Shown: positions 40,258-46,524 of the stretch, one piece after another | Numbering within the stretch: the first letter of the stretch is position 1 | Layout of the letters: each line of letters opens with the position of its first letter | Assembly (NCBI GenBank): GCA_964430735.1 | Contig: CAYSFB010000003.1 | Location: forward strand, 194,039-258,038 | Length of the DNA: 64,000 nt | DNA from: an uncultured Planctomycetia bacterium | Lineage (GTDB): Bacteria; Omnitrophota; Gorgyraeia; 2-02-FULL-51-18; JAGOUK01 | Reading direction: 5' to 3' | Notes under the pieces: generated by a model | The model's input: only the letters and a program-made list of their open reading frames with translations | Told to the model about the DNA's origin: nothing | Databases searched by the model: none | Position numbers and translations under genes: made by a program

Positions 40258-40572
40258 CTACTTCTTGGCCTTGGCGTCCTTGGCGGGCGCGGCGGCTTTG
40301 GCGTCCTTGGCGGGCGCGGCGGCTTTGGCGGGTGCGGCAGCCTTGGCACCGGCAGCAGGAGCAGCAGCTCCGGCGGCGGCTTCGGGCGCGGCGGTCTTGG
40401 CGTCCTTCTTGGCCTTGATCTTCATAACCTTGACCTTCGGAAGGTTCATGCAGCCTTTGGTCTCGTCCCAAAGCCCCTTCTTCTGGAGCGCTTCGATCTT
40501 TTCGTAACGCTTCAGAACCGAACGATGACTTCCGCTTGCGGAACCGCTGCCAAAACTGTTGTGCTGCGACAT
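40258..40572 (-). CDS. lysine/alanine-rich repeat protein (histone H1-like tail), hypothetical
   Basis: The C-terminal AKAAAPAKD repeats are encoded by a perfect 27-nt tandem duplication. The N-terminal 50 aa are unrecognised. Confidence 0.45.
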   Translation of the reverse strand: MSQHNSFGSGSASGSHRSVLKRYEKIEALQKKGLWDETKGCMNLPKVKVMKIKAKKDAKTAAPEAAAGAAAPAAGAKAAAPAKAAAPAKDAKAAAPAKDAKAKK

Positions 40573-41970: not shown

Positions 41971-43496
41971 CGTACGCCCTCGTACCGGACCAACCGGACG
42001 ATGCGCCGGCTGGATAACACTTTGTCAAAAGCATCGACGACGATCGGATCAAATTGCGTGCCCCGGTTCCGCTTCAATTCGACCAGGGCTTCTTCGACGC
42101 TCGTTCCTTTTCGATAGGGCCTCCCCCCGACCAGCGCCTCAAACGCGTTCACCACGGCGAGCACGCGCGACCCCAATGGAATCTGCTGGGCTTTGAGGCC
42201 GCTGGGATAGCCTGAACCGTCAAAATTTTCGTGGCTCGCCAGAATGATGGGAGCGACCGGCTTGAGGCTATTGAAGGATTGGACCAGCTTGGCGCCGTGG
42301 ACCGGATGCTGCCGGATCAGCTGAACTTCCGCGCCCGTGAGCTTGGCGGACTTTCGGAGAATCTCGTCGGGCAGCGAGAGCTTGCCCGCGTCCTTGAGAA
42401 GCGTCGCGTAATGAAGGGCCTTTTTCTCATCGTCGCCCATACGGAGGAGCGAAGCGATGCCCAGCGTCATCGCCAGGAGCGTGGTCGGGCGAATCTTCCG
42501 CTGGGGCGAGAAACGCGTGCCCAGGATCTTGGCCAGCGACTGGATCGTCTCAAACGTGACGCGCTTCTGATCCTCGTAAAGCTCGGCGTTCTTGATGGCA
42601 ACCACCGCCTCTTCCGCCAGCGTCATCAAAATGTCCTTGTCAAAATTGTTGAAGCCGTTCGGATCCTTCTTGTTCCGCAGCGTGATAACGCCGATCACGT
42701 CTTCGTCGATCATCGGTACCGACAACACATCTTTGCGGATAACGAGCTTGGCGGTGGCAAACACCCGGCCCTCGAGCCCCTCCCCCGTCCGAAGCTTGCG
42801 GCCGGGCCGGCCCCGAAGCGAATCCCGGGTATTGCCCCGCTCCGTCAGCCGTGTTCCACCCGACTTCCGGTCCAGGCTGTAGATCACGCACTCTTTGGCG
42901 CGGAGCACCTGGGCCGTCAGCACCGCCAGGCGCGCGTACAGATCGTCCAAGCCGCTGATGGTGTTGATCAGCCGGTGGATCGTATGAACCGTCGAAAGCG
43001 CAACCATCCGGGGACGCAGACTCTCGGATACGCGTTTGAGTTCCGCGCCCTGCTGCGTATGAGAGATGACCATCTTGAGGTTTGCGGCCAGGAGCTGGAA
43101 TGCGGGTTTGGAGAGTGTGAGCCTGTCCAAATGCGTGAGGGCGAGCCCATGCCAGCAACCGTTTTCGAATACGAGCGGAATGCAGTGCGTGGACTGCCCA
43201 TGCTGTCCGCAATTCAGATCAAAACCCAGGTGGGTCACATCCGGTCGGCGGGAAATCTGCGCCAGGATCGCCTTGCGGCATGAGAGATCCATCACGCGCG
43301 GATCCTGCCAGACATCCCATGTCCGGCCGTCCATTTCGGCCCACATCCGGCCATTGACCCGCGAAACGGTAAACAGCCACCACAGCGGGCTCCCGAGAAT
43401 GGGAGCGAACAAGGACCTTTGACGTTTGAATTCGGGATGAGCGAGGAGCGATGGCCACAAATCCGCGGGGGCGGAACCGAAGCCGGTCGGCGTCAT
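41955..43496 (-). CDS. GAF domain + HD-GYP c-di-GMP phosphodiesterase
   Basis: It has the HD-GYP motifs (HHENFDGSGYP, HD region) and an upstream GAF domain. The start was trimmed to the ATG at 43496, overlapping the upstream ATPase stop (ATGA). Confidence 0.85.
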   Translation of the reverse strand: MTPTGFGSAPADLWPSLLAHPEFKRQRSLFAPILGSPLWWLFTVSRVNGRMWAEMDGRTWDVWQDPRVMDLSCRKAILAQISRRPDVTHLGFDLNCGQHGQSTHCIPLVFENGCWHGLALTHLDRLTLSKPAFQLLAANLKMVISHTQQGAELKRVSESLRPRMVALSTVHTIHRLINTISGLDDLYARLAVLTAQVLRAKECVIYSLDRKSGGTRLTERGNTRDSLRGRPGRKLRTGEGLEGRVFATAKLVIRKDVLSVPMIDEDVIGVITLRNKKDPNGFNNFDKDILMTLAEEAVVAIKNAELYEDQKRVTFETIQSLAKILGTRFSPQRKIRPTTLLAMTLGIASLLRMGDDEKKALHYATLLKDAGKLSLPDEILRKSAKLTGAEVQLIRQHPVHGAKLVQSFNSLKPVAPIILASHENFDGSGYPSGLKAQQIPLGSRVLAVVNAFEALVGGRPYRKGTSVEEALVELKRNRGTQFDPIVVDAFDKVLSSRRIVRLVRYEGVRWAKV

Positions 43497-45190
43497 GCGC
43501 TGACGGGGAGGGCCGGCATTTCGGCCGGAGCGGCCGGATGGGTATCCGGCAGCCGCACACATTTGGACTGACGATGCAAATCCATCAAAAAGTTGAGCTG
43601 ACGCAGACCAACCACCCAGATGTTCAGGTTTTTGGCCATCAGCTTGGCGTTGGCGTCCATACCGTCCACGTGAATCAGGAGGGTTTTGGGCTTCAGCGGC
43701 CGGCGAGCGCGGGCATCCTCGGCCAAAGACCGGACGTCGGACTCGGTCACCGGACGCGAAAAGGAGCGGATTTCCCACGGGGCACAGACACCGGAAGCCA
43801 TGAATCGCGCGGAATCGGCGGATGCGGTGATGGTCTCAATCTGTTTCAGAACGGGCAGCTGGCGAGAACGGCCGTCCCACTCCACCCGGTCACCCTCAAA
43901 GCAGCCCAGCAATGCGACGATCCGGTCGGCATCCGGCTGCGCGTCCGCCGACAGAAAGCCCTCCAGCTCCTCCTCAAGATCCTTGATGAAGAGGGACGCG
44001 CGGGACGGGGCGTCGACCATGAGCGAAAGGTCGCGGTGACGGACGACCGCCGTCACCCAGAATCGAAACAAAGGATCGGTGAACGAATAAAGGGTTCCGT
44101 TCTTCACAAGGATTTCGTCTTCGGTCAAAGCCGCGAGCTGGCGCGAGCATTCGGCCTGACTGCGGCCGATCTTGGCGGCCAGATCCTTGAGACGGCGGGT
44201 TCCGCGGGCCAGCTCGAACAGCATCTGGCGGTAAGAACCTGTCGAACGCACGTCTGTCCAGCGCGAAAGACGCTTCACGAAGCACTGGTTGAGAATGCCG
44301 TCGGCGTCAAACAACGTCCGCTTGAACGCCGAAAAGATCATCGACCGCGAAATCCGGCCCGTCAGCTGCCGCTCCGTCTCTTCGCGGAGCCTCTGGGTGA
44401 TGACGTTCAGATAGAAGGGGTGCCCGTCGGTCAGCGCGACCAGGAAGCGGCGCGTTGGGGCATCCAGCTCGGCCGGCTCCAAATGCCGCTGGACGAAGCG
44501 GTCGGCCGTCGCAAAGTCGAAGGGCCCCAGATCGATCCGCTCGAAATGCCCGAAGAGAAGCGCCAATTTTTGAGCCAAAATTTCGCGGGACAACCGAACG
44601 GACGAGCTCAGGAGGATGTACTGGGTGTCTTTTTGCACCATGAGACGCTTGCCGAAGATCTGAAACGCGTGTTTGACCGGAAAATCCCCCAGCCGGTGGA
44701 ATTCGTCCAGAATCACGACGCAGCGGCGGCCCGTTTCCCGGTACGCGCAGGACGGAAGCTCCAGCGCCGCGGCATACGCGCGGTCCCAATCGCTGTTTTG
44801 GACCAGGGTCAGCACCGCACGCACTTCGGCAACGGTCCTCGGGCAGACGGTTTGCGCGCGATCCACCAGCGCATCCCAGCTGGCCGCGGCAACGGCGCCC
44901 TCGCCCTCATGCGCGCCGACCAGCGCCTGAAAAAGCAGCGAGTGGCAGAAGTGGTGTAAAAAGGTCTCGATGGTCTGGTGGGTCAGGTCGATGTAAACCG
45001 GGAGCACCCGCCGGTCATGGGCGGAGTGCAGGTAGTGCTGAATGATGGAGGTCTTACCGAGACGTTCTTCACCGATCAGCGCCAGGTTCTGGCGATAACC
45101 GTCCCGGTGGGCATCCACGCGCTTTTTGAGGGTCTCGAGAATCTCTTCGCGGCCGAAGAACAGACTCCCGACGACTGGGTCCGAAAACAT
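43493..45190 (-). CDS. AAA-family ATPase of the Arch_ATPase/DUF234 type
   Basis: A P-loop (GEERLGKTS) and Walker B (VVILDEFH), followed by a winged-helix-like C-terminal region. The start was trimmed to the ATG at 45190. Confidence 0.6.
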   Translation of the reverse strand: MFSDPVVGSLFFGREEILETLKKRVDAHRDGYRQNLALIGEERLGKTSIIQHYLHSAHDRRVLPVYIDLTHQTIETFLHHFCHSLLFQALVGAHEGEGAVAAASWDALVDRAQTVCPRTVAEVRAVLTLVQNSDWDRAYAAALELPSCAYRETGRRCVVILDEFHRLGDFPVKHAFQIFGKRLMVQKDTQYILLSSSVRLSREILAQKLALLFGHFERIDLGPFDFATADRFVQRHLEPAELDAPTRRFLVALTDGHPFYLNVITQRLREETERQLTGRISRSMIFSAFKRTLFDADGILNQCFVKRLSRWTDVRSTGSYRQMLFELARGTRRLKDLAAKIGRSQAECSRQLAALTEDEILVKNGTLYSFTDPLFRFWVTAVVRHRDLSLMVDAPSRASLFIKDLEEELEGFLSADAQPDADRIVALLGCFEGDRVEWDGRSRQLPVLKQIETITASADSARFMASGVCAPWEIRSFSRPVTESDVRSLAEDARARRPLKPKTLLIHVDGMDANAKLMAKNLNIWVVGLRQLNFLMDLHRQSKCVRLPDTHPAAPAEMPALPVSA

Positions 45191-45285
45191 GTATTTTTTT
45201 CTTAAATTCCAGGTAAAAAATCTTTGCGGTATTCTACTGCCGCACCCCACCCCCGTCAATCCCGATAAGCCCAATCCGCCTGTCG

Positions 45286-45351
45286 CCCAACCCAATCTGG
45301 CTTGCCACCCAACCCAATCTGGCTTCCCACCCAACCCAATCTGGCTTGCCG
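45286..45351. repeat. three tandem copies of a 22-bp unit (cccaacccaatctggcttgcca)
   Basis: Copies lie at 45286-45307, 45308-45329 and 45330-45351, with single mismatches. They are followed by the palindrome gcttgccgcaggcaagc. Confidence 0.8.
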
Positions 45352-45400
45352 CAGGCAAGCTAAAGAGTACCACCGCGCACGTACACCCAAACCCAACCCA

Positions 45401-45506
45401 CCGTCTGCTAAGAAGCCGTCAGATGCAAGGCGCGAGGGCGCGCCGTGTAGCGGTAGCTACACAAGCGCCCGAGCAACGCAGCAGATGACGGCTTATTAGC
45501 AGACGG
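45401..45506 (-). other. 26-bp inverted repeat enclosing two internal hairpins, abutting tRNA-Gly 3' end (trailer/terminator-like structured element)
   Basis: Arm ccgtctgctaagaagccgtcagatgc (45401-45426) pairs with gcagatgacggcttattagcagacgg (45481-45506), with 23 of 26 positions complementary. The 54-nt loop contains the ggcgcg/cgcgcc and gtgtagc/gctacac hairpins. Confidence 0.55.
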
Positions 45507-45580
45507 TGGAGCGACCTGCGGGAATCGAACCCGCGTCTCGAGCTTGGGAAGCTCGGGTATTGCCACTATACGAAGGTCGC
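45507..45580 (-). tRNA. tRNA-Gly (anticodon CCC), CCA encoded
   Basis: A manual cloverleaf fold of GCGACCTTCGTATAGTGGCAATACCCGAGCTTCCCAAGCTCGAGACGCGGGTTCGATTCCCGCAGGTCGCTCCA gives a 7-bp acceptor stem, a D arm, a CGAGC/GCTCG anticodon stem with loop TTCCCAA, and a TPsiC arm GTTCGATTC. Confidence 0.85.
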
Positions 45581-45597
45581 AATGGCGAGCCGGGCAA

Positions 45598-46524
45598 TTA
45601 TAGCAGAATCATCTTCCGGTATTCAGCCAACCGCTTCTGGATCTCGGTGGGCTTGAGGGCCGCGAGGCGGTTCACACTGAAGCTCTGGACGTTGAACGAC
45701 GCCACCACGGAGCCGTGGAGCACGGCGTCCCGGACGTCGCGGGGCTTGGGGCGATCAAATCGGGATAAGTAACCCAAAAATCCGCCTGCAAAGGAATCTC
45801 CGGCACCGGTGGGATCCATCACATTGTCGAGCAGGAAGGCCGGGATCGCAAAATGCCCCTGTTTCGTGAAGCAGCAGGCGCCGAACTCCCCGCGTTTCAC
45901 GACCACCAGCTCCGGCCCCAGCTTCATCAGCTTGCGAACGGCCTTGAGCAGATGTGCCTCGCCCGACCACTGACGAATCTCGCCGTCGTTCATCAGGACG
46001 ATGTCGACGTGACGAAGCACACGCTCAAGCGGCTTCGGAGTGGTCTCGATCCAGAGGTTCATCGTATCGCAGGCGACCCATTTGGGCTTGCGAGACTGCT
46101 GCAGCACGCTCCACTGGAGCTCCGGGTGGATGTTGGCCAAAAAGAGATGCGGCGCATGCAGGTGCTGCTTCATGAGAACCGGCTTGAAGGATTGAAAAAC
46201 GTTGAGTTCGGTCTTCACCGTGATCGCGCGGTTCAAGTCCTTTTCGTAATACCCCTTCCAATGAAACGTCTTCCCCTGTTCCATCAGCAGACCGTCGATC
46301 TGGATGCCGAGCTTTTTCAGGAGCTGGATATGCGCCTGGGGAAAATCGTGTCCGACCACCCCGACCAGATGCACCGGGCAGAAAAAACGGGCCGCGGCCG
46401 AGAAATAAACGGCCGAACCTCCGAGCGAGCGCTCGACTTCACCGAACGGCGTTTTGACCGAATCCAAGGCGATGGAACCGACCACCACAAGATCGTTGGA
46501 CCTGCTGCCAGAACGCTTCTTCAC
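45598..46524 (-). CDS. PfkB-family carbohydrate kinase (ribokinase superfamily)
   Basis: It has the PfkB signature DPTGAGDSFAGGFL and an N-terminal VVVGSIALD. Confidence 0.8.
   Translation of the reverse strand: MKKRSGSRSNDLVVVGSIALDSVKTPFGEVERSLGGSAVYFSAAARFFCPVHLVGVVGHDFPQAHIQLLKKLGIQIDGLLMEQGKTFHWKGYYEKDLNRAITVKTELNVFQSFKPVLMKQHLHAPHLFLANIHPELQWSVLQQSRKPKWVACDTMNLWIETTPKPLERVLRHVDIVLMNDGEIRQWSGEAHLLKAVRKLMKLGPELVVVKRGEFGACCFTKQGHFAIPAFLLDNVMDPTGAGDSFAGGFLGYLSRFDRPKPRDVRDAVLHGSVVASFNVQSFSVNRLAALKPTEIQKRLAEYRKMILL

Follow-up and report, generated by a model that had tools for sequence, protein, structure and literature searches.

The long hairpin that abuts a tRNA-Gly gene in the DNA analyzed here, a stretch of 64,000 nucleotides that is called the window in its entirety, is probably a solo copy, devoid of TIRs, of a MITE/REP-like mobile hairpin repeat situated at the 3′ border of the tRNA gene. 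It is likely to be dispensable for the tRNA, to whose transcript it would contribute at most an incidental trailer hairpin. The family to which it belongs is apparently undescribed and widespread. The features of the locus, in window positions, are as follows.

43493 to 45190, minus strand: ATPase_2/AAA_16 family protein of 565 aa, the downstream gene
45231 to 45259, minus strand: sigma-70-like promoter of the ATPase_2 gene, TTGACG-17-TAGAAT
45262 to 45397: additional DNA on the side of the hairpin away from the tRNA, missing from hairpin-less relatives (from comparison with these relatives)
45398 to 45509, plus strand (the family-model orientation on the window plus strand): the hairpin repeat element, defined by its inverted repeat, its folds and covariance model R1
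45398 to 45426: left arm of the outer stem, 29 nt
45422 to 45437, plus strand: conserved 5′ core GATGCAAGGCGCGAGG, from the sequence, alignments and pair table
45445 to 45462, plus strand: apical hairpin GTGTAGC-GGTA-GCTACAC, the covarying helix 4 of the family, identical in the L170 copy upstream of purB
45470 to 45485, plus strand: conserved 3′ core CGAGCAACGCAGCAGA, from the sequence and alignments
45481 to 45509: right arm of the outer stem, 29 nt, in which 45507 to 45509 are the complement of the tRNA CCA
45507 to 45580, minus strand: tRNA-Gly, anticodon CCC, with encoded CCA (ARAGORN; Rfam tRNA, 63 bits)
45598 to 46524, minus strand: PfkB-family sugar kinase of 308 aa, the upstream gene

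The arms of the inverted repeat that were reported in a preliminary description of this locus, 45401 to 45426 and 45481 to 45506 with 23 of 26 positions complementary, are reproduced with 3 of 26 positions mismatched. A repeat finder lengthens them to 29 nt (45398 to 45426 and 45481 to 45509, 90% complementary, 54 nt between them), and the stem therefore takes in the TGG that encodes the CCA of tRNA-Gly. The last 3 nt of the element overlap this CCA, and the hairpin had been positioned correctly against it. Folding, which had been proposed as a check, gives energies far below those of shuffled sequences on both strands: −80.2 and −77.9 kcal/mol with RNA parameters (z of −12.3 and −11.6), the second value being that of the tRNA strand, and −47.5 and −45.1 kcal/mol with DNA parameters (z of −11.1 and −10.5). 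The hairpin is real and far beyond chance.

Two further hairpins had been proposed within the arms. Both palindromes are present, as ggcgcg-aggg-cgcgcc at 45429 to 45444 and as the apical hairpin, but the branched shape that includes both is the minimum with DNA parameters only. With RNA parameters an unbranched rod is best, by 8.4 kcal/mol over the form with two inner hairpins, and the rod is the fold of 72 of the 89 distinct family copies. A T-shape like that of an AAV ITR was rejected for the same penalty of the branched fold as RNA and because this fold is not the family norm, even though it is the DNA-parameter minimum. Within the window core, G45422 and A45423 form a tandem G.A with G45484 and A45485, and the CGAG at 45433 to 45436 lies opposite the CGAG at 45470 to 45473.

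The tRNA-Gly gene is located 17 nt downstream of the kinase gene, and about 135 nt separate the hairpin from the ATPase promoter. Because this promoter motif is kept in both hairpin-bearing and hairpin-less relatives (L003, L004 and L203), the hairpin can be placed between two distinct transcription units. The stem is followed on the tRNA strand by GGGUUGGGUUUGGGUG, which confirms the lack of a U-tract noted at the outset, and zero terminator-like sites are present in 45000 to 45800. No promoter-like site was found on the plus strand near the hairpin. The element scores 125 bits with covariance model R1, and no second copy was detected within the 64-kb window, including with the model run with filters off.

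The extra DNA at 45262 to 45397 may belong to the same insertion as the hairpin. Between the hairpin and the ATPase promoter there is a tandem repeat (45286 to 45350) comprising 3 copies of the 22-nt unit CCCAACCCAATCTGGCTTGCCA (TRF score of 123), which is rich in G runs on the tRNA strand. This 22-nt repeat is absent from all other loci examined except an identical Logan contig; two Logan contigs match the window exactly at the hairpin locus, and one of them stops inside the tRNA. A different tandem repeat, variable in copy number, lies beside the upstream hairpin of the related loci L210 and L004. Elsewhere in the window, at 40267 to 40347, a 27-nt unit is repeated 2.4 times with 97% matches (score of 121), overlapped by 9- and 18-nt periodicities.

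We fetched orthologous loci from related Candidatus Omnitrophota MAGs with the kinase protein, and these loci occur in empty, filled and doubly filled forms.

L003 and L203 to L209 (kinase identity of 87–89%): no hairpin; the same promoter lies ~30 nt beyond the tRNA
L005 (kinase identity of 85%): no hairpin
The window: one hairpin, directly after the CCA
L004, L210 and L211 (kinase identity of 87%): two homologous hairpins flanking the tRNA in opposite orientations, one stopping 3–4 nt before the tRNA 5′ end and the other beginning right after the CCA

The hairpin is thus absent from the kinase-tRNA-ATPase locus in nine loci of the closest relatives, and none was found in 80 kb of sequence from the closest relatives. 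Gene order on both sides of the hairpin is the same as in the hairpin-less relatives. The history of gain and loss at the tRNA locus is ambiguous. Coding DNA identity to the window is 0.78 for the hairpin-less clade and 0.745 for the L004 clade, with L005 outermost; these values place the window nearest to the hairpin-less clade, such that two events are needed whether the hairpin was gained or lost. Compared with L004, the window copy shows 80% identity to the hairpin upstream of the tRNA, which has the opposite orientation, and only 71% to the hairpin at the same position; identity of the flanking coding DNA is 75%. The lower value for the same-position hairpin speaks against a simple orthologous relationship, although it could also stem from faster decay of that hairpin in L004.

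These comparisons bear on whether the hairpin might be a dedicated 3′ trailer of tRNA-Gly, serving either as a terminator that lacks a U-tract or as a processing or stability hairpin that sequesters the CCA until maturation. In favor of this reading, the hairpin starts from the CCA and base-pairs with these three nucleotides, its tRNA-strand RNA is extremely stable (the −77.9 kcal/mol given above), and no other terminator-like site is present between the tRNA and the next promoter. Moreover, a second lineage carries a hairpin flush to the CCA, and a hairpin in the metagenome contig L109 is flush to a tRNA-Ser 3′ end. Nonetheless, the nine loci of the closest relatives keep the tRNA and the downstream promoter without any hairpin, the same type of element is found at purB (see below), and the U-tract is missing. 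On the tRNA strand, the tandem G.A motifs of the core become pyrimidine-pyrimidine mismatches and the wobbles become A.C mismatches. Between L004 and L210, the copies downstream of the tRNA (B copies) show 5 differences in 97 positions, and both have an outer stem that is rich in mismatches when read on the tRNA strand. A dedicated trailer is improbable on this evidence. The original suggestion that a need for processing or termination is the reason for the hairpin finds no support in the comparison with the same tRNA locus in the nine hairpin-less cases. Likewise, functional readings that include an sRNA are unsupported as the reason for the element, given the purB copies and a wobble bias that favors the strand antisense to the tRNA. 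For the window, the tempting reading of a special tRNA-linked RNA element is thereby removed.

A remnant att site had also been suggested, in which an integrative element would have used the 3′ end of tRNA-Gly for attachment. The hairpin does adjoin the tRNA 3′ end, and compared with L003 and L203 the window locus is longer by ~245 bp, which comprise the hairpin and the repeats. In L109, a hairpin lies between two direct copies of an 18-nt tRNA-Ser 3′ end that are 230 bp apart. Set against this, no copy of the tRNA-Gly 3′ end is present elsewhere in the 64-kb window (a second 23-nt end was sought at up to 3 mismatches), synteny with the hairpin-less relatives is intact on both sides, there is no integrase among the neighboring genes, and the purB copies cannot be att remnants. 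We consider this origin extremely unlikely, and the least credible of the explanations weighed here.

The reading as a copy of a mobile repeat draws on the wider family of elements, which are palindromic hairpin repeats of ~105–112 nt. Three Omnitrophota copies align with 79% column identity and show compensatory change in 16 of 42 predicted pairs. A core search pattern made from these three copies, TCTGCNNCGTTGCT-N30-50-GCGCCTNGNATC, matched at least 120 stretches in metagenome contigs, and model R1 yielded 101 + 56 matches on the retrieved loci. In the 101-match alignment, pairing extends to 89% of cells and compensatory change to 40 of the 42 pairs, values far above those of shuffled and slid controls. 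The family core consists of GATGC.AGGCGCGAG on the 5′ side and CGAGCAACG..GCAGA on the 3′ side, with stems that are unrelated in sequence between subfamilies. The conservation of this core is partly imposed by the search pattern, yet second hairpins detected only by model R1 also keep AGGCGCGAG and GAGCAACG. Two tandem G.A motifs are held within the core, GA/GA next to UGC/GCA, and CGAG/CGAG, and both exist on the (+) strand only.

The members have the properties of dispersed palindromic repeats: they occupy unrelated loci, they are polymorphic for presence and absence, and they keep hairpin potential despite sequence drift. Copies are found at the 3′ and 5′ ends of tRNA-Gly, at the 5′ and 3′ ends of purB and at the 3′ end of tRNA-Ser. 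The preliminary description had held a generic repeat present in many copies to be the opposite of its own interpretation; such multiplicity is evident at the level of the family, in the metagenome stretches noted above, and not within the window, where the element is single. A match to a known RNA family, the other outcome that had been set against that interpretation, was not obtained. At the Rfam gathering threshold only the tRNA was matched in the window and in 14 loci, and in E-value mode the best other matches were plant miRNA models at 23 bits versus a threshold of 124. The core pattern had no match in viral contigs, BLAST with the window hairpin and with a full MITE (L121) had none in plasmids, and an exact 21-mer of the arm had none in a genome collection of species representatives. 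No description of the hairpin family was found in the literature searched.

Two further observations concern individual contigs. On a contig labelled Nitrospinota, a 40-bit model match (L068, 2624 to 2751) is located ~160 nt downstream of a PfkB kinase homologue, with the IS5-like end GGAAGATCTGGCCAAGTCC just beyond it; this match suggests that the family spans phyla. On another contig (L150, 8601 to 11556), a TROVE/Ro60-like ORF of 505 aa lies 370 nt from a double-hairpin MITE and beside a cluster of four tRNA genes, which is a possible Y-RNA neighborhood near a Ro60-like ORF.

Most relatives of the window hairpin are parts of larger units. A pair of IS5-like TIRs of 20–33 bp flanks the hairpin or hairpins in 46 of the 58 loci for which both flanks are present. 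Units with one hairpin measure 160–187 bp and those with two measure 267–318 bp, and in the double units the hairpins are arranged head-to-head, (+)(−), 0–9 nt apart. YTAR, which is the target duplication of IS5 (PMC5009759), borders 18 of the 46 TIR-flanked units on both sides and 13 of them on one side. For example, the L121 unit begins with GGAAGCTCTGCACAAGTCC and ends with GGACTTGTGCAGAGCTTCC between two copies of CTAG, and E. coli IS5, read directly, begins with GGAAGGTGCGAACAAGTCC and ends with CGCACCTTCC between two copies of CTAA; the MITE end matches the E. coli IS5 end at 15 of 19 positions. Because the two TIRs are complementary, automated logos of the 5′ and 3′ flanks gave no information. 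The TIRs are less well conserved than the core.

Several copies per genome are indicated by a number of signs. Among the 80 matches listed, 29 are no more than 150 nt from the end of a contig, and contigs L140, L163, L200 and L117 carry TIRs of the same family at both ends. Breaks also occur at the tRNA-Gly spot itself, where three independent short-read contigs end inside the tRNA (L002, at 5049) or inside the downstream hairpin (L210, at 11333, and L211, at 3991), consistent with an assembly break induced by a repeat or a hairpin. A hairpin repeat would explain why assemblies break at this spot. No IS5-like transposase was found by tblastn with the E. coli IS5 transposase in the 1.43 Mb examined, and TIR searches for an autonomous IS returned only MITE-spaced pairs.

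At the window copy, no IS5-like TIR of the GGAAG... or GAGCC... types is present; the tRNA lies directly on one side, and there is no matching inverted flank. Nor is there a 4-bp YTAR duplication or other direct repeat at its borders. Without TIR or target duplication, an IS5-type mechanism cannot be claimed for this copy. TIRs are also lacking in about one fifth of the sampled loci and in all Omnitrophota copies. All nine solo copies with interpretable context (the window copy, L004-A, L004-B, L109, L170-A, L170-B, L116, L098 and L160) are flush against a gene end, with the 3′ end of the (+) form towards the gene. That of L160 is upstream of rpsL, and that of L109 is at the 3′ end of tRNA-Ser(CGA). 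The repeated tRNA-Ser end in L109 (1460 to 1780) reads GCGGTGACGATGGGATTT, and the interval also holds a partial T-arm copy in inverted orientation as well as a terminator-like hairpin that is bidirectional, an arrangement that looks like the residue of an integration at tRNA-Ser.

The two purB copies show that hairpins of the window subtype occur at a gene of another kind. In metagenome contig L170, which the names attached to its PurB homologues assign to Omnitrophota, hairpins scoring 98 and 91 bits bracket purB and share the apical GTGTAGCGGTAGCTACA with the window. One stops 12 nt before the purB ATG, and the other overlaps the stop codon. Corresponding sites in L213 and L214, whose PurB is 84% identical, are empty, with a purB-purS gap of 10 nt. 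The last codons and the stop of the L170 gene are inside a hairpin arm (1871 to 1885), such that its C-terminus is KKATIR* compared with AKAGK* in L213. Insertion of the repeat thus rewrote the 3′ end of a housekeeping gene. At the 5′ site, comparison of the filled and empty states suggests a short (T)AGG duplication together with 18 additional nt at the gene-distal side. The L109 arrangement prompted us to consider that the palindromes grow by copying their flanks; this was rejected on comparing the second L170 copy (L170-B) with the empty site, since the last codons of purB come from the element.

Substitutions within the stems reveal a difference between the strands. With scoring that was blind to mismatch type and one representative for each of 42 clusters below 80% identity, the outer stems contain 54 G.U-type versus 12 A.C-type mismatches on one strand. 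G.U-type mismatches are in excess in 27 clusters and in deficit in 3, counts that are only partly independent because copies within subfamilies are related. The wobble-favored strand is the (+) strand, which in the window is antisense to the tRNA. The A copies, those upstream of the tRNA, show 2 differences in 108 positions between L004 and L210, both of them swaps between G.U and Watson-Crick pairs, and the spacer beside them shows ~8 in 85 positions together with indels. Along with the stronger conservation of the core and the uniform orientation of the solo copies, the wobble bias and these swaps suggest selection on a single-stranded form, and not just selfish spread. To judge from these sequence patterns, the constraint would act on the (+) strand.

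It is conceivable, therefore, that the hairpin is a strand-specific functional module that acts as RNA or as single-stranded DNA, that has been captured by IS5-type MITEs, and that might also spread alone. Candidate roles would be an orientation-dependent insulator against incoming transcription, or a recognition hairpin for a single-strand transposase of the REP/RAYT-like kind. The core is kept across MITE subfamilies that have unrelated TIRs and stems, and to the compensatory changes, the high fraction of paired cells and the excess of G.U over A.C can be added the presence of both tandem G.A motifs on the (+) strand only. Double units are nearly always (+)(−), so that transcription from either direction meets the (+) form first, the solo copies all turn the same end to the gene they abut, and the A copies of L004 and L210 differ by G.U/Watson-Crick swaps alone. 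Conversely, the window copy has no promoter-like site near it on the plus strand, and the relatedness of copies within subfamilies tempers the counts. Quasi-palindrome correction by template switching is an established mechanism, and it could keep arms complementary without selection. We regard a functional module of this kind as unlikely, though it deserves more weight than the trailer. If true, a module that moves alone to exact gene borders in Omnitrophota would represent a gene-border element of a new class, of which the tRNA-Gly copy would be an example.

The account that we favor is that of a mobile repeat. In most environmental bacteria the hairpin is the internal module of IS5-type miniature transposons, arranged as YTAR, a GGAAG..-type TIR, one hairpin or a head-to-head pair, a second TIR and YTAR, and these units presumably spread by cut-and-paste with a transposase provided in trans. 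In Candidatus Omnitrophota, the hairpin occurs as discrete TIR-less insertions of ~110 bp flush with gene ends, one of which probably landed directly after the CCA of tRNA-Gly(CCC). If co-transcribed with the tRNA, the hairpin RNA would form a very stable trailer, which might be at most an incidental barrier that sets the tRNA apart from the ATPase gene, which has its own promoter. The comparisons above establish that the element belongs to the family, that its insertion is polymorphic, that its relatives have a MITE setting, and that stems covary with a bias towards one strand; how the solo copies move, and any influence on the tRNA transcript, are inferred. Several observations count against a mobile repeat. 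There is one copy in 64 kb and none in the 80 kb of the closest relatives, the window copy has neither TIR nor target duplication, and the 1.43 Mb examined gave no IS5-like transposase. Conservation that is greater in the core than in the TIRs, the 54:12 wobble bias and the uniform solo orientation also weigh on that side.

With the structure, its position and the missing U-tract correct and the functional readings unsupported, the initial interpretation of this locus is partly supported. The finding as submitted is largely explained, and its residual interest lies in features of the family. The family is abundant in soil, sediment and groundwater metagenomes, and neither Rfam nor the searched plasmid and viral collections contain it. 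A family model would aid the annotation of MAGs by reducing spurious ORFs, flagging likely contig break points and exposing false calls of novel ncRNAs. For research on mobile DNA, it would make it practicable to study a conserved structure that MITEs carry as a passenger.

In its behavior the element resembles IS5-derived MITEs, REP/BIME/REPIN repeats, Correia elements and ERIC sequences, and by sequence it belongs to no family found in Rfam or in the literature searched. Like rho-independent terminators and the 3′ external transcribed spacers of tRNAs, the hairpin follows a tRNA immediately, its stem is rich in G+C, and it would lie within the precursor trailer. However, it is 3–4 times as long as a terminator stem-loop, lacks a U-tract and is not conserved with the tRNA. 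Many family copies begin with GCGTTGC and end with GCAAC, and a resemblance to integron attC sites was therefore considered. It was rejected because the GTT/AAC motifs of integron attC have the opposite polarity and because the window copy lacks the motifs.

Correia elements of Neisseria and ERIC sequences of enterobacteria are palindromic repeats of 100–160 bp that form long hairpins, are co-transcribed with their neighbors and vary in presence between strains; Correia elements have conserved termini, a 26-bp TIR and a TA duplication. There is no sequence relationship between these repeats and the hairpin family. Moreover, the termini of Correia and ERIC elements are conserved, whereas in the hairpin family the termini vary and the center is conserved.

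REP, BIME and REPIN elements of Proteobacteria (PMC3116915, PMC2817692 and PMC3733652) share several traits with the hairpin family. They are extragenic palindromes found mostly just downstream of genes, they produce hairpins of ~100 nt when paired and cluster in alternating orientation, and both action as RNA hairpins and mobility have been proposed for them. Indeed, the window element might itself be a REPIN, that is, two inverted REP units that form a long hairpin and are mobilized by a RAYT transposase. It has the appropriate size (~110 nt) and a long imperfect hairpin, it is extragenic and just downstream of a gene, and its relatives cluster in alternating orientation as do BIMEs (PMC3116915 and PMC2817692). 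REP units, in turn, are 20–40 bp long, with a stem of 8–20 bp and an unpaired conserved GTAG or CGTC tag (PMC3733652). No such tag with an 8–9-bp stem, as defined in that work, is present in the window hairpin: the 29-bp outer stem runs into a rod of ~50 bp, and the alignments contain no tag. Furthermore, the conserved part is mid-stem and not at the foot, and the IS5-like TIRs and YTAR duplications of most relatives point to a DDE transposase. A REPIN is thus a very unlikely identity for this element. The family differs from these repeats as a single ~110-nt rod with a mid-stem core and no tag, set in an IS5-type frame instead of associated with RAYT.

A further parallel is with IS5-family MITEs, the non-autonomous derivatives of IS5-group insertion sequences. 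Most members of the hairpin family occur, as these do, in TIR-bounded units of 160–320 bp with CTAG, CTAA or TTAG flanks, without coding capacity and with several copies per contig set. The window copy and the other Omnitrophota copies differ from them in having neither TIR nor YTAR duplication. What the hairpin family has in common throughout is its internal hairpin core, and not its TIRs.
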